A DNA stretch of 64,000 nucleotides from Acidobacteriota bacterium (GTDB taxonomy: Bacteria; Acidobacteriota; Vicinamibacteria; Fen-336). How positions within the stretch are numbered: the stretch's first letter is position 1; every line of letters begins with the position of its first letter. The stretch lies in the NCBI GenBank assembly GCA_003223555.1, contig QHVM01000082.1, positions 163,762 to 227,761 on the forward strand, in the 5' to 3' direction. The notes under the pieces are model-generated. The model saw only the letters and a program-made list of their open reading frames with translations. It had not been told where the DNA came from and ran no database searches. The translations under genes were made by a program, and so were the position numbers. This document shows positions 6,960-42,026 of the stretch, piece by piece.

Positions 6960-7406
6960 ATGCTCAAGCGGGGCGAGACGGCGCCGGACTTCGCGGTGGG
7001 CGGCCGCACCCTCTACCAGATCCTCGACGAGCGCGCGGCGGTGGTCTTCTTCTTCCCCAAGGCGTTCACCGCCGGCTGAACGAAGGAGGCCGGCGGGTTC
7101 CGCCGGGAGTACGACAACCTCCAGGCGTCGGGCTGCGAGGTCATCGGCGTGTCCCGGGATTCCCAGGAGACGAACGACCGCTTCCGGGAGAGCCTGCGCC
7201 TGCCCTACTCGCTCGTCGGCGACCCGGAGGAGCGGATCGTCCGCGCCTACGACGTGCGCTGGCCGATCCTCGGCATGGTCCAGCGCGTCACCTACGTGGT
7301 CGGGCGCAACCGGAAGGTGCGTCTCGCCTTCCACAGCGAGTTGGACATGGACGCCCACTCGGCGCGGGCCTGCCGCGCCCTCGCCGAGCAGGCTCCCTCC
7401 GCCTGA
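6960..7406 (+). CDS. Peroxiredoxin (Bcp/PrxQ family) with in-frame TGA (7077-7079) at the peroxidatic Cys position. Candidate selenocysteine-containing peroxiredoxin, ~148 aa
   Basis: ATG at 6960 reads MLKRGETAPDFAVGGRTLYQILDERAAVVFFFPKAFTAG-TGA-TKEAGGF... The Bcp motif is (K)AFTPGCT, so the TGA replaces the catalytic Cys codon. The same frame continues as ORF 7149..7406 (…GVSRDSQETNDRFRESLRLPYSLVGDPEERIVRAYDV…), which is the Bcp C-terminal half. Confidence 0.72.
7090..7106 (+). promoter_or_regulatory. SECIS-like hairpin 10 nt downstream of the UGA: CCGGCGG-GUU-CCGCCGG (or a 6-bp stem with GGUUC loop)
   Basis: Perfect 7-bp inverted repeat read directly from the sequence. The apical loop contains GGUUC, like the GGUC loop of the E. 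coli fdhF SECIS. Confidence 0.55.
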
Positions 7407-18771: not shown

Positions 18772-19467
18772 TCAGACTACCAGAGTGCTCCCGCCCGCCG
18801 CCTGCTGCACGTGCTTCAGCAGCAGCGACTCCGGGGCCGCGCCCACGAACTCGACGGTCTCGCCGACGACCGTCTTCGGCACCGACGAGACGCCGTACTT
18901 CTGGGCCAGCTCGGGATAGCCCGTCACCTCCACGCCGTCGGCGGTGATCTTGTCGCTCTCGATCGCGAAGCGGATGGCCAGGCGGACCGCCCGGGGACAG
19001 TAGGGTCAGGTCGGGGTCGAGAAGACCTGGAGGTGCACGGGGCGCGGCAGCTCCATGAGGGCGGCCCGTGTCTCGTCGGACAGGCCGCTGTCGCCCCGGG
19101 ACACGTCCAGGATCGCCTCGACGAGCGTCCCGAACTCGTAGCCGGACGGCAGGCCGTAGAGGCGGATGCCGTAGTCCTTGTCCTTCCCCATCACCGCGAT
19201 GGCGGGGATGCGCGCGATGCCGAGCGACTCGACCTTCTCCTTGTCGAGGACGAAATTGTACGACTCGACCGTCAGCCGGGGGTCGATGGCGGCCAGCTCC
19301 TCGACGAGGCGCCGCACCTGCTCGGACTCGGGATCGGCCAGGGCCTGGGAGAACACCGCCAGCCGCACGGGCTCGACGAGCCGGGCGAACTCCTCCTTGA
19401 GCTGGGAGGCGACGTCGTCGGTCATCAGCGGCATGCGCGAAACGTCCTCCGCCATCGAGTATAGCAA
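18772..19467 (-). CDS. Two-domain glutaredoxin-like / protein-disulfide-oxidoreductase (PDO)-like thioredoxin-fold protein with in-frame TGA (19006-19008) at the first Cys of the CPYC motif. Candidate selenoprotein (U-P-Y-C), ~231 aa
   Basis: ORF 19006..19467 ends …LQVFSTPT-TGA. The same frame continues PYCPRAVRLAIRFAIESDKITADGVEVTGYPELAQKYGVSSVPKTVVGETVEFVGAAPESLLLKHVQQAAGGSTLVV and stops at 18772. TPTCPYCP is the canonical Grx/Trx active site. The N-terminal Trx-like unit lacks CxxC, as in the glutaredoxin-like two-domain family. Confidence 0.72.
18978..18994 (-). promoter_or_regulatory. SECIS-like hairpin 11 nt downstream of the UGA: CCGGGCG-GUC-CGCCUGG (one G-U pair), or a 6-bp stem with GGUCC loop
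   Basis: Read from the sequence. Loop GGUCC compared with GGUUC in the peroxiredoxin element. The similar stems (CCGGCGG / CCGGGCG) and identical spacing support a shared function. Confidence 0.5.
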
Positions 19468-19474
19468 ACGGCCG

Positions 19475-20674
19475 TCAGCGCACCAGGACGAGCCCGGCGG
19501 CCAGCGTCAGCAGCGTCACCGGCACCCCGACCTTCAGGTACTCGGCGAAGCCGAGCGGCGAGAGCTTGCGCGCGCCCTCGGCCACGATGAGGTTGGCGAT
19601 GGAGCCGACGAGCGTGAGGTTGCCGGCCAGCGTGGAGGCCATGGCCAGCGTGATCCACGCCCGATGGGGCTGGGGCAGGTCGGGCACGAGATGGGTGAAG
19701 AGCATGACCGCGGGAACGTTCGAGACCAGGTTCGACAGCACCGCGACGGACGCGGCGAGGGAGACCACCCCGTGGGCCTCCCGGGCGTGGAGGGCATCGA
19801 ACAGGGCATCCGTGACGCCGGCCGCCCTGGCCGCTCCGACCACCACGAACAGGCCGGCGAAGAGCGTCAGCAGGTTCCAGTTGATCTCCAGGAACACCTT
19901 CTCCGGCTTCACGCGCCGGGTGAGCAGCAGGGCGGCCCCCGCGGTGAAGGCGACCATCGAGACGTTGGCCCCCGCGAAGAACCACGCGATCATGGCCACC
20001 GAGGCGGCGAGGCTCTTCAGGGTCAGGAACGGATGGAGCCTCGCCCGCGGCTCGGCGCGGGCGGCGAACGGCCGGGCCAGCTCCCGCCGGTACACGAGCG
20101 CGATCACCGCGAAGTCGACGAGGAGACCCACCACCGCCACGGGAGCCAGGGCGGCGAAGAAGGCGCGGTAGTGCATCCCGGAGGCGACCCCGATGAGCAT
20201 GTTCTGCGGGTTGCCGGTGAGGGTGGCGGTGGAGCCGATGTTGCTGGCGGTGGCGAGCGCGATCAGGTACGGCGTCGCCCGCACGCCGAGGCCGGCGGCC
20301 ACCTCCAGCACCAGCGGGGTGAGCGCCAGGCAGACGGTGTCGTTGACGAAGACGGCCGAGAGCACGCCGGCCACCGCCACCAGCCCCGCCAGCAGCCCCC
20401 GCGGGGAGGCGGCCCGCCGCGCCACCGCCGCGGCCACCCAGCGGAAGAACCCGGCCAGGCGGAGGTGCCCGACGATCACCATGGTCCCGAAGAGGAGCAC
20501 CAGCGTGCCGAGGTCCACCATGCCGTAGGCCTGCTCGGGGGTGACGACGTGGAAGGCGACCATGAACGCCGCCCCCACCACCGCCGCTCCCGTGCGGTCG
20601 AGGCGGATGCCGGGCGCGCGGCCCAGGGCCACCACCAGGTAGGTGGCGGTGAAGATGGTCGCGGCGGTCAGCAA
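19475..20674 (-). CDS. ArsB/NhaD-superfamily anion permease (arsenite/citrate-transporter-like)
   Basis: 399-aa polytopic membrane protein with TLTGNPQNMLIG and SNIGSTATL motifs typical of the ArsB/NhaD/SLC13 fold. Its stop is 8 nt upstream of the Sec-PDO start. Confidence 0.65.
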   Translation of the reverse strand: MLTAATIFTATYLVVALGRAPGIRLDRTGAAVVGAAFMVAFHVVTPEQAYGMVDLGTLVLLFGTMVIVGHLRLAGFFRWVAAAVARRAASPRGLLAGLVAVAGVLSAVFVNDTVCLALTPLVLEVAAGLGVRATPYLIALATASNIGSTATLTGNPQNMLIGVASGMHYRAFFAALAPVAVVGLLVDFAVIALVYRRELARPFAARAEPRARLHPFLTLKSLAASVAMIAWFFAGANVSMVAFTAGAALLLTRRVKPEKVFLEINWNLLTLFAGLFVVVGAARAAGVTDALFDALHAREAHGVVSLAASVAVLSNLVSNVPAVMLFTHLVPDLPQPHRAWITLAMASTLAGNLTLVGSIANLIVAEGARKLSPLGFAEYLKVGVPVTLLTLAAGLVLVR

Positions 20675-20684
20675 GCCTTCCGCT

Positions 20685-21941
20685 TCAGACCCACTTCGGG
20701 AACCACGTCCACGGCCGGAGCCCGCCGCCGAGATCGTGGAAGTACCAGCCGGCCGGGACGGGCAGCGCGATCAGGAAGGGCAGGAAGAAGAAGAAGAGCA
20801 CGACCACGAGCGCGACGTAGCCGCGGGCCAGCGGCGCCCATCTTCCCTCCCATCCGCGGTCGAGGAGTCCCCCCAGGCTGAGGCAGGCGTACGGGATGGC
20901 CTCGAAGAGGTAGTGGCCGTAGTTGAGCGTGCGGGGCGAGATCCCCCACGGCAGGTACAGGAGGCAGAAGCCGAGGCCCGAGAACAGCCGGCGGGGATCC
21001 CGCTCGCGCGCACCCGTGCCAAGCGCCCACAGCGTGACCGGCACCGAGGCCCACCACAGCGCGGGGTTCCCGATGGCCACGATGCCGCGGATCGTCTCCC
21101 CGGTCTGCTTGAAGTGATACCAGGTCGGCCGGTACAGCCACGGCCAGGTGTACCACTTGCTGAAGTAGGGATGCGTCGCGCGGAGGTCGGAGTGGTAGCG
21201 CCAGATCGCCTGCTGCAGGGGCCACAGCTCCTTGAGCGAGTGCCCCTGCCCCTGCCGCAGCCAGGGGACGTAGCTGAGGACGTAGACCGCCACCGGCAGC
21301 ACGACGAAGGCGAGCAGGGCCAGCGCCAGCTCGCGGGGCTTGATGAGGCGCAGCCGCCGCACCGCGAGCAGCACGAGGCCCAGGAAGGAGGCCGCCCACA
21401 GGCTCGTCCAGCGCGTGGAGAGCGCGAGGCCCAGGAAGACGCCCGCCAGCGCCATGTCGGGAGCGGAGAGGCGCGGGCGGAGGGCCGCCCGCAGGATGAA
21501 CAGCGCGGCCGCCACCTGGAACAGCACCGCGAAGATGTTGGTCATCGCGATGCGGCTCTGCACGAGATAGACGCCGTCGCACAGCAGCAGCACCGAGGCG
21601 AGCACCGCGGCGCGCTCGCCGGCGGTCGCCCGCCGGGCCAGCGCATAGAACACCGGGGCCAGGGCGACCCCGGCCAGCGCGGGAAGCAGCCGCCACGCCC
21701 AGGGCACGTAACCGAACAGCCACACGCCGACCGCGATGAGGAGCTTGGCCGTCGGGGGATGCACCCACTCGGTGGGCGGCTCGCCCTTCAGGTACTGGAG
21801 GGCGGTCTTGGCGTGGTACACCTCGTCGAAGACCTCCTCGTCCGGAACGCCCAGCCGGGGGAGCCGGAAGAGCGCCGCGGCGAGGGCGAGCAGGAGCGCG
21901 ATGGCGAGGTCCCGCCGCGGCCCGGATGGGGGCAGCCTCAT
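20685..21941 (-). CDS. Dolichyl-phosphate-mannose protein mannosyltransferase-like (PMT/GT39) membrane glycosyltransferase
   Basis: LPRLGVPDEEVFDEVYHAKTA (DE motif in the first periplasmic loop); multi-TM; 418 aa. Confidence 0.7.
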   Translation of the reverse strand: MRLPPSGPRRDLAIALLLALAAALFRLPRLGVPDEEVFDEVYHAKTALQYLKGEPPTEWVHPPTAKLLIAVGVWLFGYVPWAWRLLPALAGVALAPVFYALARRATAGERAAVLASVLLLCDGVYLVQSRIAMTNIFAVLFQVAAALFILRAALRPRLSAPDMALAGVFLGLALSTRWTSLWAASFLGLVLLAVRRLRLIKPRELALALLAFVVLPVAVYVLSYVPWLRQGQGHSLKELWPLQQAIWRYHSDLRATHPYFSKWYTWPWLYRPTWYHFKQTGETIRGIVAIGNPALWWASVPVTLWALGTGARERDPRRLFSGLGFCLLYLPWGISPRTLNYGHYLFEAIPYACLSLGGLLDRGWEGRWAPLARGYVALVVVLFFFFLPFLIALPVPAGWYFHDLGGGLRPWTWFPKWV

Positions 21942-21960
21942 CGGCGGAAGAGTATAGCGC

Positions 21961-23529
21961 TCAGTCCGCCGCGGACTTCTTCCGGAGCGCGGAGCGCGGC
22001 TCGAGCAGCTCGAGCGCGTAGGTCACGGGCACGCCGAAGGAGTTGCCGCCGAACTTCGGAAGCACCGCATACTCCACCGCGATCACCTGACCGTTCTTGT
22101 TGAAGATCGGCCCCCCGCTGCCGCCCTGGGTGGTGGGAGCGTCGAACACGATGTCGCTGCGCGTGATGTCGCCGATATGGCCCTGGGTGGTGGAGGGGCG
22201 GATGAGGCCCCGCACGCTGAGCGCCTCGGTCACCCGCTCCGAGTTGGTGCCGTGAGACTCCAGGATCTGCTTCACCACCACCGTCTCGGCCTTGGCCAGG
22301 ATGGCCTCCAGTCCCGCCGGGTAGCCCACGACCACCACCGGCTGACCGGCCACCGACCCGGTGCGCGAGCGGTCGAGGGGGAGCACGGGGATCCTCCTTC
22401 CCCCCAGCTCCACCCTCAGCAGGGCCAGGTCGACGGTGTCCGACCGTCTCTCCAGGGCCAGCTCGAAGGGCTGCTTCTGCTGGGGGAAGAACCCGCGGAG
22501 GTAGCTGAGGCGGGGCCGATAGCCCGCCTTCTGCAGCTTCTCGGCCTCGTCGTCGTTCCACCAGGGCTCGGCCAGGTGGCGGTTGGTGAGGATGAGACCC
22601 CTCGCGTCCACCAGGAAGCCGGTTCCGTAATACTCGACGGTGTGCACCGACCCGGTGCCCTCGGGGTCCAGGGCCGCCCCACCGTCGCTGTCCCGGACCG
22701 GCTCCCCGGACTCGTCCTGCCGGTACCGCAGCGGCCGGCCGGAGGCGTCGGCGAAGGCGTAGGCGCCCTGGATGAGCGCCACTCCCGCCCCGAACTCCCG
22801 GATGATGCGCTCGCCGGCCGCGCGCTCCGACTCCAGGGCCTGGAGACGCTCGCGCGTCGAGCCGAGCTCGTCCCGCAGGACCTGCACCTCGCCGCGGGCG
22901 GGATCCGTGAGCCGGCGCAGCAGCTCCGCCTCCCTTGCGCGAACCTGCTCCAGCTTCAGCCGGTCGGCGTCGCCGCGCCGGCGCTCGGCCTCGACGCGGG
23001 CCTCGAACGCGCGCCGCTCGGTGTCCGCCTGCTGCACCGCGCGGCGGAGGGTCGCCACCTCGCGGCCGAGCCGCCGCGACTGGAGATAGCTCCAGGACAG
23101 CAGGGCGAGGGCCACGATCAGCACCGCGGCCAGCGCGCGACGGAAGCTGCGGCTCGTCTGATGGACCATCCGGAAGGCCATGGTCTCGGACAGCCGCGGC
23201 GCCGCCGGCCTCCTCTCCGCCACGCGGCGAGGGGCGTCGGGGAGGCGGAAGCGGAGGCGGGGACCACCCCGGCCCAGCTCCACCGTGTCGCCGTCGCGCA
23301 GCACGGCTTCCTGGATCTCGTGGCCGGCGAGGAAGGTCCCGAGCGCCGAGCCGCTGTCGACCAGGACGACGTCCGCGTCGCGTTGGTGGAGGACGGCGTG
23401 GCGCGGGGCGAGGCCGGCGATGACCACGTCCGCCGCGGGGTCGGCCCCGATCGTGGCCGGCAGGCGGGGGACGGAAACCGAGCGGCCCTGGTCCGGGCCG
23501 CTCAGGTGCTCGAAGGCGATGCGGGTCAT
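21961..23529 (-). CDS. FHA-domain protein fused to trypsin-like (S1/Trypsin_2) serine protease domain, single TM between them. Start taken at ATG 23529 (MTRIAFEHL…)
   Basis: FHA region (VPRLPATIGADPAADVVIAGLAPRHAVLHQRDADVVLVDSGSALGTFL); coiled-coil; C-terminal protease motifs (GTGFLVDARGLILTNRHL, GGSGGPIF). The upstream 77 codons of the longer ORF are low complexity. Confidence 0.65.
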   Translation of the reverse strand: MTRIAFEHLSGPDQGRSVSVPRLPATIGADPAADVVIAGLAPRHAVLHQRDADVVLVDSGSALGTFLAGHEIQEAVLRDGDTVELGRGGPRLRFRLPDAPRRVAERRPAAPRLSETMAFRMVHQTSRSFRRALAAVLIVALALLSWSYLQSRRLGREVATLRRAVQQADTERRAFEARVEAERRRGDADRLKLEQVRAREAELLRRLTDPARGEVQVLRDELGSTRERLQALESERAAGERIIREFGAGVALIQGAYAFADASGRPLRYRQDESGEPVRDSDGGAALDPEGTGSVHTVEYYGTGFLVDARGLILTNRHLAEPWWNDDEAEKLQKAGYRPRLSYLRGFFPQQKQPFELALERRSDTVDLALLRVELGGRRIPVLPLDRSRTGSVAGQPVVVVGYPAGLEAILAKAETVVVKQILESHGTNSERVTEALSVRGLIRPSTTQGHIGDITRSDIVFDAPTTQGGSGGPIFNKNGQVIAVEYAVLPKFGGNSFGVPVTYALELLEPRSALRKKSAAD

Positions 23530-24057: not shown

Positions 24058-25218
24058 CTACCGCCGGGCCGCCTCCTCCTGCCGCGGCGGGGGCGCGGCG
24101 ACCGGCATCGCGATCCGGAAGCGCGCCCCCGGACCCTCGGGCAGCAGCTCGAGGGTGCCGCCATGGTCCTCGACGAAGCGCCGGGCGACGGCCAGGCCGA
24201 GGCCGGTGCCGCCCTTCTTGCCCCGGGTGACGAAGGGCTCGAAGAGCCGGTCGCGGATCTCGGGGGGCACGCCGGGACCCTCGTCGGCCAGGGTGAGGAC
24301 GAGGCGCGGCCCGCCGTCGGCGGGCGGAGCGGGCACGAGCTCGGCCCCGAGGTGGAACCGGCCCCGGCCGCCCATGGCGTCGCGGGCGTTGGCGGCGATA
24401 TTGCTCACCACGCGGCGCAGCTTGTCGACGTCGACGGCGGCCACCACGTCCCGGGGCACGCGGAAGTCGCGCACCAGCTCCAGCGTCGGCTGCTCGGCCT
24501 GCACGCCGGCCGCCAGCTCGTCGAGTATCGCGCCGAGGGCCAGCGGGCGGCGGGCGAGGCGCCGCCCCCCGCGCGCGAAGTCCAGCGTCTCCGTCGTCAT
24601 GCGGTCCAGGCGGTCCACCATCCGGGTGATGAGCCGGGCGCGGTCGCGCACCTCCGCCGAGGATCCAGGGTCGTCGGCCAGCGATTCCGCGTAGCCGCGG
24701 ATCACCGTCATGGGGCCGCGGAAATCGTGGGCGAGCATGCCGGCCATCGTCCCGAGGGCCGCCATGCGCTCGGAGGCGATGAGCTCCCGCTGGTAGAGGT
24801 GGTTCTCGAGGGCGAGGGCGGCCCGCGCGGCGAGCGAGGACAGCTCCCGGGCCTCCACCGCGCGCAGCGGACGCCGCCGCCGCCCCCGCCGCGCCCCGAG
24901 GACCAGCATCCCCACCAGGCCGCTGCGGGCGAGCAGGGGCACCAGGACCCCGTCCCGGCTCCGCCCGGGAGGCCGGGTCGGAGTCTCGAGGAGCAAGCCG
25001 TCGGAGAGCAGGAAGCGGGCCTCCGGCGCGTCCACCATCTGGCCCGGCGCCAGGGCCTGCCCGGCCGCGCCGCCCGAGGAAAGCACCTGGAAGGAGTCGA
25101 GCTTGCGGTCCCAGAGCAGCAGCGTCGCGTCGGGCACGTCCAGGGCGGCCGGCAGCTCGCGGGTCAGCAGGCGGGCGAGGCCGTCGAGGTCCGGGACCTC
25201 CAGGACGCGGTCGGCCAT
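24058..25218 (-). CDS. Cytoplasmic sensor histidine kinase with N-terminal GAF-like domain (HisKA + HATPase_c)
   Basis: H-box MAALGTMAGMLAHDFRGPMTVIRGYAESL. The HATPase domain has N, G1 (DEGPGVP) and G2 (GGTGLGLAV) boxes. Confidence 0.8.
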   Translation of the reverse strand: MADRVLEVPDLDGLARLLTRELPAALDVPDATLLLWDRKLDSFQVLSSGGAAGQALAPGQMVDAPEARFLLSDGLLLETPTRPPGRSRDGVLVPLLARSGLVGMLVLGARRGRRRRPLRAVEARELSSLAARAALALENHLYQRELIASERMAALGTMAGMLAHDFRGPMTVIRGYAESLADDPGSSAEVRDRARLITRMVDRLDRMTTETLDFARGGRRLARRPLALGAILDELAAGVQAEQPTLELVRDFRVPRDVVAAVDVDKLRRVVSNIAANARDAMGGRGRFHLGAELVPAPPADGGPRLVLTLADEGPGVPPEIRDRLFEPFVTRGKKGGTGLGLAVARRFVEDHGGTLELLPEGPGARFRIAMPVAAPPPRQEEAARR

Positions 25219-38885: not shown

Positions 38886-39170
38886 TCAGTGACCGAGCGT
38901 GCGGCAGGACCCGCTGCTGACGCACGGCTTGTCGGGCTCCATGATGCAGCGGTCGGAGCCGCCCGGGACGCTCAGCAGCTGGAGGCTGGGATGCGTGTGG
39001 ACGTGGACCGCGGCCGGCGCCGCCGTCCGGAGGCGGCCGGCCTGGAGCCGGGCCACCGCTTCCTCGAGGGCGGACACCCGCGACTCGAGGTCCGCCGTGG
39101 CCGGCGTCCCGCCCTCGCGGATCTGGGAGAGCACCTCCTCGGTCAGCTCGCGGATGCGATTGTCGTCCAC
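38886..39170 (-). CDS. Small BMC-operon protein (94 aa): N-terminal amphipathic encapsulation-peptide-like helix plus C-terminal His/Cys-rich tail
   Basis: MDDNRIRELTEEVLSQIREGG (amphipathic helix) … HVHTHPSLQLLSVPGGSDRCIMEPDKPCVSSGSCRTLGH. Last gene of the coupled BMC operon. Confidence 0.5.
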   Translation of the reverse strand: MDDNRIRELTEEVLSQIREGGTPATADLESRVSALEEAVARLQAGRLRTAAPAAVHVHTHPSLQLLSVPGGSDRCIMEPDKPCVSSGSCRTLGH

Positions 39171-39194: not shown

Positions 39195-39467
39195 CTAGCC
39201 CGCGATCTCGACGGAGTCCACGATCCCCACGATGGCCGCGTCTACCCCGGCCAGGCCGCGGTCGAGCGCCATCATCGCCGCCTTGCCGTCGAGGACCAGG
39301 AGCACGCGGTCGCCGACCCCGGCGTCGACCGCGTCGATGGCCATCACCGCGGGGCCGCGGTCCTGGCCGTCGAGGTCGAGCGGCTGGGCGAGGAGGAGCT
39401 TGGCTCCTTCGAGCTTGCCGTTCTTCTGCGTGGAGACGACGCTGCCCACGACGCGCGCGATCAGCAT
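39195..39467 (-). CDS. BMC vertex protein (BMC-P, EutN/CcmL/PduN family), copy 1
   Basis: MLIARVVGSVVSTQKNGKLEGAKLLLAQPLD… is the EutN/CcmL signature. 90 aa. Confidence 0.88.
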   Translation of the reverse strand: MLIARVVGSVVSTQKNGKLEGAKLLLAQPLDLDGQDRGPAVMAIDAVDAGVGDRVLLVLDGKAAMMALDRGLAGVDAAIVGIVDSVEIAG

Positions 39468-39733
39468 CAGGACGTGCTCCAGTGGTCGACGATGCCCACG
39501 ATGGCGGCGTCGGTCGGGACCTCGGCGGGCAGGAAGGGCAGGGCGGCCTCGCGCCCGCGAACGTAGAAGACCTCCTCCGCCGCTCCCGCGCCCACCGAGT
39601 CGACCGCGACCAGTGGCCGGCCGCTCGGGGCGCGGTCCGGGCGCAAGGGCTGGATGACGAGCAGCTTCGTTCCGGCGAGGCCGGGGTCCTTGCGGGTGGC
39701 GACGACGGTGCCGATGACGCGGGCCAGGAACAC
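39467..39733 (-). CDS. BMC vertex protein (BMC-P, EutN/CcmL family), copy 2
   Basis: MFLARVIGTVVATRKDPGLAGTKLLVIQPL…; its stop overlaps the next start by 1 nt (TGATG). Confidence 0.85.
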   Translation of the reverse strand: MFLARVIGTVVATRKDPGLAGTKLLVIQPLRPDRAPSGRPLVAVDSVGAGAAEEVFYVRGREAALPFLPAEVPTDAAIVGIVDHWSTS

Positions 39734-39736
39734 GGC

Positions 39737-40006
39737 TCAGTCCTTCACTTCGACGGTGTCGACGACGCCCACGATGGCCGCGTCCACCGGACAGTCCTTG
39801 AGGCCGGAAGCCATGCGGGCCGAGGAGCCGCTCACGACGAGGACGCGGTCGCCGAGGCCGGCGTCCACCGTGTCCACCGTGACCACGTATCCGGCCTCGT
39901 CCTTGCCGCGGGGGTCGATCATCCGCACGAGGAGGAACTTCGAGCCCAGCAGGCGCTCGTCCTTCCGCGTGGCGACCACCGTGCCGACCACCCGCGCGAG
40001 GATCAT
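39737..40006 (-). CDS. BMC vertex protein (BMC-P, EutN/CcmL family), copy 3
   Basis: MILARVVGTVVATRKDERLLGSKFLLVRMID…. Confidence 0.85.
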   Translation of the reverse strand: MILARVVGTVVATRKDERLLGSKFLLVRMIDPRGKDEAGYVVTVDTVDAGLGDRVLVVSGSSARMASGLKDCPVDAAIVGVVDTVEVKD

Positions 40007-40033
40007 GAGGGAGAGCCGGGGCCGGGAGGGGGT

Positions 40034-40318
40034 CTACTTCGCCGCCTTGCCGATGGGCAGCACGTCCTCGAGGTTGGCGTGCGGCCGGGGGATCACGTGC
40101 ACGGAGACCAGCTCGCCCACCCGCCGGGCGGCCGCCGCGCCCGCGTCGGTGGCGGCCTTGACCGCCGCCACGTCGCCGCGCACCAGGGCGGTCACATAGC
40201 CGGACCCGATCTTCTCGTAGCCGACGAGGGTGACCTTCGCCGCCTTCACCATGGCGTCGGCGGCCTCGATCATCGCCACCAGCCCCCGGGTCTCGATCAT
40301 GCCCAGCGCTTCACCCAT
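40034..40318 (-). CDS. BMC hexamer shell protein (BMC-H, PduA/CcmK/EutM family, Pfam00936)
   Basis: [77 protein letters not shown] is the near-consensus BMC-H sequence. Confidence 0.92.
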
Positions 40319-40375
40319 GCTGCCTCCCCTGAACGGCCAATGCGGTCAGACTCTGGACCGGCGCGTGGCCGGAAG

Positions 40376-41149
40376 TCAAGTACGGAAGCGCTCGATCGCT
40401 TCCGCCAGCAGGCGCACCAGCTCCTCGCGGCTGAGGCTGAACCGCGCGGGCCCGCCCTCCGCGCCGGCGGCCAGCGTCGGCGAGGGCCGCGGCTCCGGCG
40501 CGCACACCGGCGGAGGGTAGCCGGCCGGCTCGCGCATCGCCGCCAGCCGCTCGACGTCGGCGGCCGGGAGGTGGCCCTCTCGACCCAGCAGCCGCGCCAC
40601 CAGCGCCACGCGCGCCACCTGCTCGAGGGTCTCCATGCGCTCCCAGGCCTGGTAGAGGTCGACCCCGACGGAGAGGGCGCCGTGGTTGGCGAGCAGGAGC
40701 GTCTGGGCTTCGCAGATCGCGCGGCCGACGTTGTCGGCCAGCTCGGAGGTCGAAGGCGTGCCGTAGGGGATCACGGGCACCACGCCGAGCGTCACCACCG
40801 CCTCCGCGGTCAGCGGCCGGTCGAGCGGGATCCCGGCCACCGCGAAGCCGGTGGCGGTCGGGGGGTGGGCGTGCACGACCGCGCCCACGTCGCTCCGGCG
40901 GCGGTAGACCGCGGTGTGCATGAGGACCTCGGTCGAGGCGCGCCCCCCGTCGAGGGGCCGGCCCTCGAGGTCGGTCCTCACGATGCATTCGGGCGCGAGG
41001 AAGCCCTTGCAGACCGCGGCGGGCGTCACGTAGAGGACGCTTCCGTCACGGACCGAGATGTTGCCCTCGTTGCCGCCGATGAGCCGGCGGGCGTAGAGCC
41101 GCCGGCCGACCTCGACCATATCGGCCCGGATCCGGTCGCTGCCGTTCAC
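40376..41149 (-). CDS. Class II aldolase/adducin-family enzyme (fuculose-/rhamnulose-phosphate aldolase-like) with Pro-rich linker and C-terminal encapsulation-peptide-like amphipathic helix
   Basis: GNEGNISVRDGSVLYVTPAAVCKG…, VVHAHPPTATGFA and LANHGALSVG are class II aldolase motifs. C-terminus PAGYPPPVCAPEPRPSPTLAAGAEGGPARFSLSREELVRLLAEAIERFRT. Confidence 0.85.
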   Translation of the reverse strand: MNGSDRIRADMVEVGRRLYARRLIGGNEGNISVRDGSVLYVTPAAVCKGFLAPECIVRTDLEGRPLDGGRASTEVLMHTAVYRRRSDVGAVVHAHPPTATGFAVAGIPLDRPLTAEAVVTLGVVPVIPYGTPSTSELADNVGRAICEAQTLLLANHGALSVGVDLYQAWERMETLEQVARVALVARLLGREGHLPAADVERLAAMREPAGYPPPVCAPEPRPSPTLAAGAEGGPARFSLSREELVRLLAEAIERFRT

Positions 41150-41412
41150 GGGCCGGGGGGCAGGGCCAGGGCGCGGTCGCGGCAGGCCGGCGAGCAGAAG
41201 TGCATCTGGCGGCCGCCGACGACCGCGCTCACCGCGCGCTCCCGGGGGAGGAAGGTGTTGCAGATGCGGTCCCGCACCATGTCGACGCCGGGGGCGGGCG
41301 TGGCGGCCGGCGGCTCGCGCAGGCCCTCGACCAGGCCGGCCACGAACCGCAGCCCGATCCGGACGAGGAAGAGCGCGACCAGGAAGCGGACGAAGGCGAC
41401 GATGAGGATCAC
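41146..41412 (-). CDS. Membrane-anchored YHS/TRASH-domain (metal-binding zinc-ribbon-like) protein. Start taken at GTG 41412, which gives a GTGA overlap with the upstream TPR gene
   Basis: One TM helix (VILIVAFVRFLVALFLVRIGLRFVAGL), then VRDRICNTFLPRERAVSAVVGGRQMHFCSPACRDRA (YHS pattern C-x2-…-FCS-x2-C). GGAGG lies 5 nt upstream of the GTG. The longer ATG-41505 ORF would overlap the TPR gene by 97 nt. Confidence 0.55.
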   Translation of the reverse strand: MILIVAFVRFLVALFLVRIGLRFVAGLVEGLREPPAATPAPGVDMVRDRICNTFLPRERAVSAVVGGRQMHFCSPACRDRALALPPGP

Positions 41413-42026
41413 GACGGCCTCCGGCTGGCGCGCACCTGGTCGATCTGCTCGCGCAGGCCCCGGAGCTGCGGATCGTCCGGATAGCGCTTGATCAGCCCTT
41501 CCCACACCGCCACCGCGTCCTTGGGCCGGCCGGTCTGCATGAGCGCGATACCCTTGTTGTAGAGCGCCTTCTTGTGGCCGGGGTCGCTGGCCAGGGCCCG
41601 GTCGAACTCGGCCAGCGCCTCGCCGGCCTTGCCGGCGCTGACGAGGCAGGCCCCCAGGTCGACCCGCACGTCGTTGTTGTCGGGCGCGAGCGCGAGAGCC
41701 TCCCGGTACCAGCGGGCCGCCTCGTCGAACTGGCTGTGATCCATGAGCAGGTTGCCCAGCTCGATCCGGGCCTGGACGTTTGCCTTCTCGCGCGCGGCCA
41801 GGGACTCAAGCGCCCGCACCTCGTTGGGGTCCGGGGTCGCGGCCGCGCCGGCTCGGGCGCGTCCGGCCGCCGGCGCCGGCGCCACCTCGGCCTCGGCCGT
41901 CGGCGCGCCCGCGCCCGGCGGCGGCACGCGCGACTCCGCGTGGTCGCCGAGGCCCGCCGCCATGTAGCCGAGCACGAAGCCGAAGACGATGCCGGCCACC
42001 GCGTAGATCATCGGGTCTTTATTCAT
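41409..42026 (-). CDS. N-terminally membrane-anchored TPR-repeat protein, first gene of the BMC operon
   Basis: TM helix MIYAVAGIVFGFVLGYMAAGL, an Ala/Pro linker, then TPR helices (ARIELGNLLMDHSQFDEAARWYREALALAPDNNDVRVDLGACLVSAGKAGEALAEFDRALASDPGHKKALYNKGIALMQTG…). Confidence 0.7.
   Translation of the reverse strand: MNKDPMIYAVAGIVFGFVLGYMAAGLGDHAESRVPPPGAGAPTAEAEVAPAPAAGRARAGAAATPDPNEVRALESLAAREKANVQARIELGNLLMDHSQFDEAARWYREALALAPDNNDVRVDLGACLVSAGKAGEALAEFDRALASDPGHKKALYNKGIALMQTGRPKDAVAVWEGLIKRYPDDPQLRGLREQIDQVRASRRPS

Follow-up and report, generated by a model that had tools for sequence, protein, structure and literature searches.

Predicted selenocysteine insertion sequences behind in-frame UGA codons of a peroxiredoxin gene and a protein disulfide oxidoreductase gene in an acidobacterial contig

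The window analysed here, a stretch of 64,000 nucleotides (nt) from contig QHVM01000082.1 of an Acidobacteriota bacterium, contains two redox genes whose reading frames continue past an internal UGA codon: a Bcp/PrxQ-type peroxiredoxin gene (gene A) and a gene for a protein disulfide oxidoreductase (PDO; gene B). Each UGA is followed by a 17-nt hairpin, and on sequence grounds these two hairpins, hairpin 1 in gene A and hairpin 2 in gene B, are very probably bacterial selenocysteine insertion sequences (bSECIS). A preliminary description of this DNA had called both elements SECIS-like. That reading is supported by the in-frame UGA at the position of a catalytic cysteine (Cys), by agreement with the bSECIS consensus, and by the conservation of the hairpins in homologs of the selenocysteine (Sec) type and their loss from most homologs of the Cys type. 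The predicted products are a peroxiredoxin whose peroxidatic residue is Sec and a Sec-containing PDO that resembles the N-terminal part of AhpF and has a UxxC motif. The features are as follows.

6960-7406, plus strand: predicted selenoprotein gene A, Bcp/PrxQ-type peroxiredoxin, 148 amino acids by read-through, motif PKAFTAG-U-T (PxxxTxxU).
7077-7079, plus strand: UGA of the peroxiredoxin gene, predicted to encode Sec, at the peroxidatic Cys position; Sec would be residue 40.
7080-7089, plus strand: spacer between the UGA and hairpin 1, 10 nt, ACGAAGGAGG.
7090-7106, plus strand: putative SECIS hairpin 1, CCGGCGG-GUU-CCGCCGG, with a stem of 7 base pairs (bp), a GUU triloop and a G-C closing pair.
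18772-19434, minus strand: predicted selenoprotein gene B, PDO or AhpF-N-terminal-like protein, 220 amino acids by read-through, motif TPT-U-PYC (UxxC).
19008-19006, minus strand: UGA of the PDO gene, predicted to encode Sec, at the first Cys of the CxxC motif; Sec would be residue 143.
18994-18978, minus strand: putative SECIS hairpin 2, CCGGGCG-GUC-CGCCUGG, with a 7-bp stem, a GUC triloop and a G-C closing pair.

The coordinates, stems, loops and spacings of the preliminary description were all found to be correct when the sequence was re-read. Hairpin 1 starts 10 nt past its UGA and all seven of its pairs are G-C; hairpin 2 starts 11 nt past its UGA and its seven pairs include one G-U. In a numbering where the U of UGA is +1, the G and U of the loop fall at +21/+22 in hairpin 1 and at +22/+23 in hairpin 2. 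The same description proposed that both UGA-proximal regions be folded with RNAfold, and in contexts of ~60 nt each hairpin is the local minimum-energy structure. The whole-segment folding z-scores are not significant (-0.58 for hairpin 1 and +0.19 for hairpin 2, in a window of 72.7% GC), and folding energy alone is no evidence here, because any sequence of ~73% GC folds well.

The bSECIS consensus of bSECISearch (Zhang & Gladyshev 2005), to the extent that it is summarised in Fig. 2A of PMC13188914, asks for 3-9 nt in the apical loop and 4-16 bp in the upper stem, an apex N1-G-[G/U]-N-N2 with N1 and N2 paired and a G in the first two loop positions, a distance of 16-37 nt from the UGA to the apical loop, and a folding free energy no higher than -7.5 kcal/mol. 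Both hairpins have a loop of 3 nt on a stem of 7 bp. The apices are G-GUU-C in hairpin 1 and G-GUC-C in hairpin 2, the loops begin 17 nt (peroxiredoxin) and 18 nt (PDO) from the UGA, and the energies of the isolated hairpins are -12.7 and -10.5 kcal/mol, respectively. The two hairpins also fit the description of bacterial SECIS elements in PMC4605307, which gives a stem of 6-8 bp and a conserved loop G ~20 nt from the UGA. The reading frame runs through both UGAs, at a column where all full-length homologs carry Cys. Finally, both hairpins are conserved in Sec-type genes and dispensable in Cys-type genes, in the peroxiredoxin with covariation and in the PDO by synonymous-site invariance alone.

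The read-through product of gene A matches the Pfam family AhpC-TSA (PF00578) with an E value of 2.4e-26 and carries the PxxxTxxU motif within an AhpC/TSA domain. Its full-length homologs have Cys at the Sec column, in the motif PKAFTPG-C-T. Among 80 related metagenome loci the active-site codon is TGA in 70 and TGC in 10; L036, L038 and L045 are among the Cys-type loci whose TGC aligns with the TGA. The match to the NCBIfam PrxU model is weak (20.8 bits, cut-off 270); the score lies so far under the cut-off that the subfamily of gene A differs from PrxU.

Hairpin 1 is kept in all 70 Sec-type peroxiredoxin loci and is missing from most Cys-type loci. On average 6.6 of the 7 pairs in register are formed in the 70 Sec-type loci versus 3.6 of 7 in the 10 Cys-type loci, with mean energies of -13.1 and -6.8 kcal/mol, respectively. 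Pairing in the helix reaches 90% over 31 distinct Sec sequences and drops to 28-57% when the 3' arm is slid out of register. Compensatory double changes were found at two pairs. Five distinct Sec sequences, L040 among them, have A-U in place of the closing G-C pair, and in the Sec form L064 one G-C pair is flipped to C-G, so that the encoded peptide changes from AGGFRR to AGRFGR and the pairing is preserved. In a third variant the 7-bp stem is kept by bulging one A. All 13 variants of hairpin 1 fold, at energies between -9.0 and -15.5 kcal/mol. The loop G and U are invariant in the 70 peroxiredoxin loci as well as in 13 Sec-type PDO loci. The length of the spacer is conserved among the 31 distinct sequences and its letters vary synonymously; the synonymous sites flanking the hairpin vary freely. 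Taken together, these substitution patterns indicate that hairpin 1 is selected at the RNA level.

The heptamer CCGCCGG occurs twice near the peroxiredoxin UGA, upstream of it at 7069-7075 and as the 3' arm of hairpin 1 at 7100-7106, both on the plus strand. The 5' arm of hairpin 1 can pair with either copy, and a 101-nt fold favours the upstream partner, which places the UGA in the loop. This alternative hairpin, 7069-7077 paired with 7088-7096, was rejected as not conserved, since only 3 among 56 distinct orthologous sequences have a perfect complement upstream. The duplicate heptamer upstream of the UGA is probably incidental.

Gene B encodes a thioredoxin-fold protein with two thioredoxin-fold units, the second (C-terminal) of which carries the UxxC motif. 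It scores 243.1 bits against the NCBIfam model TIGR02187, 'PDO_seleno_TRX' (cut-off 185), which is curated as a family containing selenoproteins. Its homologs comprise full-length Cys forms of ~220 amino acids and N-terminal fragments of 142 amino acids that end ...FSTPT at the UGA, and the UGA aligns with TGC or TGT in Cys-type loci. The neighbours of gene B are a CitMHS/ArsB gene upstream and an HGSNAT_cat gene downstream, and the same genes stand beside Sec-type and Cys-type orthologs, the upstream gene of the Cys-type ones being CitMHS/ArsB or PMT. The order of PMT-type glycosyltransferase or CitMHS-ArsB-type permease, PDO and HGSNAT_cat acyltransferase occurs in the window at 18772-22022 (minus strand), in loci L091-L108 and in many soil contigs, which points to a stable functional neighbourhood.

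The Sec-type PDO set consisted of the window, five loci from metagenome-assembled genomes (MAGs; Acidobacteria / Vicinamibacteria, with amino-acid identities of 71-86%) and seven loci from metagenomes. The 17 nt of hairpin 2 are identical in the window and the 12 other loci, even though these 13 loci span 71-99% amino-acid identity. All six codons that lie wholly inside the hairpin are invariant in the Sec-type loci, versus 23 of 66 comparable codons in the rest of the gene. Among the Cys-type loci, L090 and L092, with slightly different peptides, have lost the hairpin, and L091 (TGC) keeps the stem with a GCG loop. The invariance of the codons argues that hairpin 2, too, is selected at the RNA level.

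More divergent Sec forms of the PDO were sought for covariation; all closer forms are invariant, and L006, from an Acidobacteria gp13 MAG, has a different structure. L006 is a Sec-type homolog (TPT-U-PHC) of 48% identity, and the RNA downstream of its UGA forms a different stem-loop with UGCA at its apex, beginning 1 nt past the UGA. Another acidobacterial class may thus use a different style of SECIS.

Several observations weigh against the assignment of the two hairpins as SECIS elements. No selA, selB, selD or tRNA-Sec gene was found in the 64-kb window with ARAGORN and with Pfam on ~40 open reading frames (ORFs); we infer that the Sec machinery is present elsewhere in the genome. The Cys-type loci L036, L091, L106 and L108 keep most or all of the stem, part of which may be an inexpensive by-product of codon bias or a remnant. 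Hairpin 2 shows no covariation across the 13 Sec-type loci, only invariance. The published bSECIS consensus alone passes 16.5% of the 955 TGA triplets in the window. The PDO hairpin was not among the 173 matches at E <= 10 in the window to a covariance model built from the peroxiredoxin hairpins. Finally, RNAalifold with default settings, applied to 30 peroxiredoxin Sec sequences, prefers a competing helix in which GGCUGAAC pairs with GUUCCGCC.

It is very unlikely that the constraint acts on the protein only, with the hairpins kept for the sake of the peptides AGGFRR and PRAVRLA at the helix start past the active site. The hairpins do encode a functionally important segment just past the catalytic residue, and much of the stem persists in the four Cys-type loci named above; L036 (TGC) retains hairpin 1 complete. 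However, the Cys-type loci L101, L103, L106 and L108 encode the identical peptide PRAVRLA with 1-5 synonymous differences from the Sec forms (four distinct sequences), whereas the Sec forms never vary. The Val codon in the PDO loop is GUC in all Sec forms, and GUG and GUA occur in Cys forms. The peptide encoded by hairpin 1 is nearly fixed in Sec forms but variable in Cys forms (ATAFRR, ANGFRR, ADEFRR, AKAFRE and others), and the Sec form L064 swaps two amino acids yet preserves the base pairing. Synonymous choices also track the Sec/Cys status. The first loop G of hairpin 1 is a synonymous site, with GGG or GAG in Sec forms and GGC in the Cys forms L045 and L070, and for the first Arg, Sec forms have CGC or CGU where Cys forms mostly have CGG. 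These contrasts favour selection on the RNA of the predicted SECIS elements.

A second explanation holds that both UGAs are true stops in split genes or pseudogenes, and that the hairpins act as terminators, attenuators or translational-coupling structures. Public annotation does give the pieces as separate short ORFs, the peroxiredoxin Sec forms being entered as C-terminal pieces of 85-88 amino acids cut at the UGA. TGA is moreover the commonest ordinary stop among the coding-like ORFs of the window, and therefore the codon has not been reassigned. However, the break falls exactly at the catalytic Cys in two different families, and the N-terminal peroxiredoxin piece would have 39 amino acids and no active site. 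Dozens of independent contigs retain the TGA together with an intact downstream frame. In the window, the GC content at third codon positions is 1.00 upstream and 0.97 downstream of the peroxiredoxin UGA, where the frame stays open, and 0.97 upstream and 0.94 downstream of the PDO UGA. Neither hairpin is followed by a T-run, and TIGR02187 is curated as containing selenoproteins. True stops at both positions are thus highly improbable, and read-through at SECIS-dependent UGAs is the preferred interpretation.

The chance occurrence of such hairpins was assessed on both strands of the window (128 kb). Hairpins with a 7-bp stem and a 3-nt loop number 231. The narrower class, in which seven or more stem pairs carry a 3-nt loop with a G-GUY-C apex, has five members, hairpins 1 and 2 included, and the other three, at 2899, 29338 and 41354, were rejected since none is placed in a coding frame behind a Sec-like TGA. 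For 3 of the 955 TGAs, a hairpin of seven or more stem pairs with a GUN triloop lies 8-13 nt further on. Two of these are the Sec sites; the third, at 24294 on the plus strand, was rejected as antisense to a histidine-kinase gene and devoid of a Sec-like coding frame. A scan blind to hairpins, for TGAs flanked on either side by in-frame coding-like sequence, returned four sites, again including both Sec sites; the remaining two, at 39739 (minus strand) and 45798 (plus strand), were discarded as ordinary stops at gene junctions, followed by GTG starts. The same TGA scan of 322 kb of related loci yielded no selenoprotein genes beyond the peroxiredoxin and the PDO.

A GC-rich coincidence, in which the codon usage of a genome of 73% GC makes stable hairpins everywhere and two of them happen to follow a TGA, is most improbable. 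It accords with the insignificant z-scores, the 231 hairpins of the loose class, the 16.5% of TGAs that pass the broad consensus and the 173 covariance-model matches, but the specific class has five copies, lies at the right spacing after 3 of 955 TGAs, coincides in both matches with the sole two genuine in-frame TGAs, and is conserved across 70 and 13 loci with compensatory changes. The preliminary description had named a frequent occurrence of the motif without an upstream TGA as grounds for abandoning its reading, and such a frequency is not seen in the window. Its view that the structure reflects selection rather than codon-usage noise is borne out by this rarity, by conservation in the 70 and 13 Sec-type loci and by the compensatory changes in the peroxiredoxin.

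The G and A of each UGA and the next two bases are complementary to a 4-mer at the apex 15 nt downstream (GAAC with GUUC and GACC with GGUC). The segments that could pair are as follows.

7077-7081 with 7097-7100, plus strand: UGA and apex of the peroxiredoxin element, Watson-Crick.
19007-19004 with 18988-18985, minus strand: UGA and apex of the PDO element, Watson-Crick.

Such 4-bp complementarity at a separation of 15 nt was found at 4 of the 955 TGAs in the window, two of which are the Sec sites, and a 3-bp counterpart, GAC with GUC, exists in E. coli fdhF, fdnG and fdoG. A functional helix between UGA and apex, which would mask one or the other until the ribosome arrives and leave the 7-bp hairpin a secondary role, would be in line with these counts, with the default choice of RNAalifold on the peroxiredoxin alignment and with the constant GUC of the PDO Sec forms against GUG or GUA in Cys forms. 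However, on the same alignment this helix reaches -7.2 kcal/mol versus -11.4 kcal/mol for the hairpin, and with no compensatory pairs it was rejected as the functional structure. Decoding of the UGA in the A site would require it to be melted, its discovery was post hoc, and it is partly forced, as a G-U-C apex complements G-A and the bases that follow are dictated by conserved Thr and Pro codons. We therefore give it hardly any credence compared with the 7-bp hairpin as SECIS.

A broader conjecture combines both structures. All selenoprotein genes of the Vicinamibacteria-like lineage might use a minimal, stereotyped SECIS (17 nt, bulge-free 7-bp stem, G-U-Y triloop, 10-11 nt past the UGA) whose apex is complementary to the UGA and the two bases after it, 15 nt upstream, and which could form a switch, resolved by the ribosome, that masks the UGA or the apex before decoding. 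We regard this generalization as unlikely.

The preliminary description also held that the two hairpins share stem sequence, loop and spacing. Their identity is 11 of 17 positions overall and 9 of 14 in the stems. Approximately 10% of the 7-bp/3-nt-loop hairpins in the window match the stems of hairpin 1 equally well (~90th percentile), so the stem identity is not significant. When the window was searched with filters off, a covariance model of 16 distinct peroxiredoxin SECIS variants recovered hairpin 1 at 36.9 bits and missed the PDO hairpin. A shared-sequence model of both hairpins was thus rejected by the covariance search and by the stem identity test, and the claim of common stem sequence is not sustained, its 9 of 14 identities being at background level. 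The shared loop and spacing stand: the G-GUY-C apex, the closing pair, the stem length and the spacing of 10-11 nt are above background. Hairpins 1 and 2 are alike in geometry, apex and spacing, not in sequence, and they are not related by descent. Likeness of this kind is what recognition by a single SelB predicts, because the same SelB must recognise both. The two coding sequences had been called unrelated, which is correct for the peptides that span the hairpins (EAGGFRR and CPRAVRLA) and not for the proteins as wholes, both of which have a thioredoxin fold.

In the mechanism that would follow from the SelB-SECIS systems of E. coli and Moorella, ~10-11 nt of downstream mRNA would be held in the ribosomal entry channel when the UGA is in the A site. 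The 17-nt hairpin would then lie just outside the channel and could present its apex to the winged-helix domains of SelB. SelB would deliver Sec-tRNA(Sec), and the UGA would be read as selenocysteine and not as a stop.

The window contains one tRNA gene, a tRNA-Pro(CGG) found with ARAGORN at 38988-39063 (minus strand). Rfam 15 searched over the whole window at gathering thresholds gave no match at all, and the tRNA family was missed too despite the tRNA-Pro; this miss is probably an artefact of the scan filter, so the null result is no proof against structured RNA. Close by, at 39467-41491 (minus strand), lies a bacterial-microcompartment (BMC) cluster with one BMC-H shell gene (40037-40345) and two consecutive in-frame EutN/CcmL vertex genes (39740-40033 and 39470-39736). 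A class II aldolase gene lies upstream in the cluster at 40379-41491 (minus strand), and the combination of BMC and aldolase is unusual in an acidobacterium. Within the aldolase ORF, a palindrome at 41082-41107 (both strands), AGCCGGCGG...CCGCCGGCC, has the same arms as hairpin 1 around a loop of 7-8 nt. It is the best non-self match of the peroxiredoxin covariance model (19.8 bits, E = 0.015). The TGA-anchored hairpin scan found no TGA at SECIS spacing before it, and it looks like a chance GC palindrome.

The significance of these predictions is mostly practical, and nothing here alters the understanding of Sec decoding. Both elements appear to be canonical bacterial SECIS in two known selenoprotein families; new are the acidobacterial members, for which public gene calls are truncated. 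With respect to annotation, the two redox genes would be real selenoprotein genes that standard gene callers cut at the UGA. In the JGI, ENA and NCBI collections there are dozens of clusters of 142-amino-acid 'AhpF' and 85-88-amino-acid 'peroxiredoxin' entries that correspond to selenoprotein halves split at the Sec-UGA, and one NCBI entry among these halves is a 'hypothetical protein' from an Acidobacteria MAG. The generic bSECIS consensus, with its 16.5% of TGAs passing, is nearly useless in very GC-rich genomes. A descriptor tuned to the lineage (TGA, 10-11 nt, 7-bp stem, G-GUY-C apex) has a background of ~0.1% and could list the selenoproteome of soil Acidobacteriota. The pairs of Sec and Cys forms with kept or lost hairpins constitute a natural series for studying Sec-to-Cys conversion.

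In comparison with the bSECIS consensus, both hairpins are typical in lying in the coding region directly past the putative Sec-UGA and in having a small loop on a GC-rich upper stem. They stand at its minimal end, with 17 nt and no bulge, internal loop or conserved lower stem. The SECIS elements of E. coli fdhF, fdnG and fdoG were folded for comparison, after the fdhF sequence had been checked by its presence in 5,419 of 5,426 genomes. In all three the apical stem starts 11 nt past the UGA and the loop holds G23 and U24, and in the window, with spacers of 10 and 11 nt, the G and U of the loop lie almost equally far from the UGA. The fdnG and fdoG elements fold with a GUC triloop closed by A-U, and the GUC triloop is common to the PDO hairpin. 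The E. coli elements have a bulged U17, a shorter apical stem that contains A-U pairs and a lower helix that includes the UGA, and fdhF has a GGUC tetraloop. In contrast, hairpins 1 and 2 have an uninterrupted 7-bp G/C stem with no bulge and no conserved lower helix, and neither shows the fdhF-specific combination of bulged U17 and GGUC tetraloop. The similarity to fdhF that was originally noted is thus retained for the distance from the UGA (+21/+22 and +22/+23 versus +23/+24) but not for the GGUC loop, a tetraloop in fdhF and a triloop here.

Fossil SECIS-like structures in Cys-containing descendants of selenoproteins have been described (PMC1794560, Fig. 4). The Cys-type loci L036, with its complete hairpin, and L091, with the hairpin 2 stem and a GCG loop, resemble them and look like remnants of a recent switch from Sec to Cys, or like a pre-adapted state. 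At the protein level, Prx is listed as a selenoprotein family in PMC13188914 and PMC1794560. Sec-peroxiredoxins (TxxU) were first described from Eubacterium acidaminophilum, according to the citation in PMC13188914, and 12 members are counted in PMC1794560. Gene A is like these Sec-containing peroxiredoxins in its AhpC/TSA fold, the PxxxTxxU motif and the predicted Sec at the peroxidatic position; it differs from them in being of the short, 148-amino-acid Bcp/PrxQ type and in coming from the Acidobacteriota, a phylum for which selenoproteins have been recorded (Acidobacteria in PMC1794560). Gene B is like the known PDO_seleno_TRX (TIGR02187) or AhpF N-terminal domain homolog selenoproteins in its two thioredoxin-fold units with UxxC in the second, and differs in its host lineage, the soil Vicinamibacteria-like Acidobacteriota.

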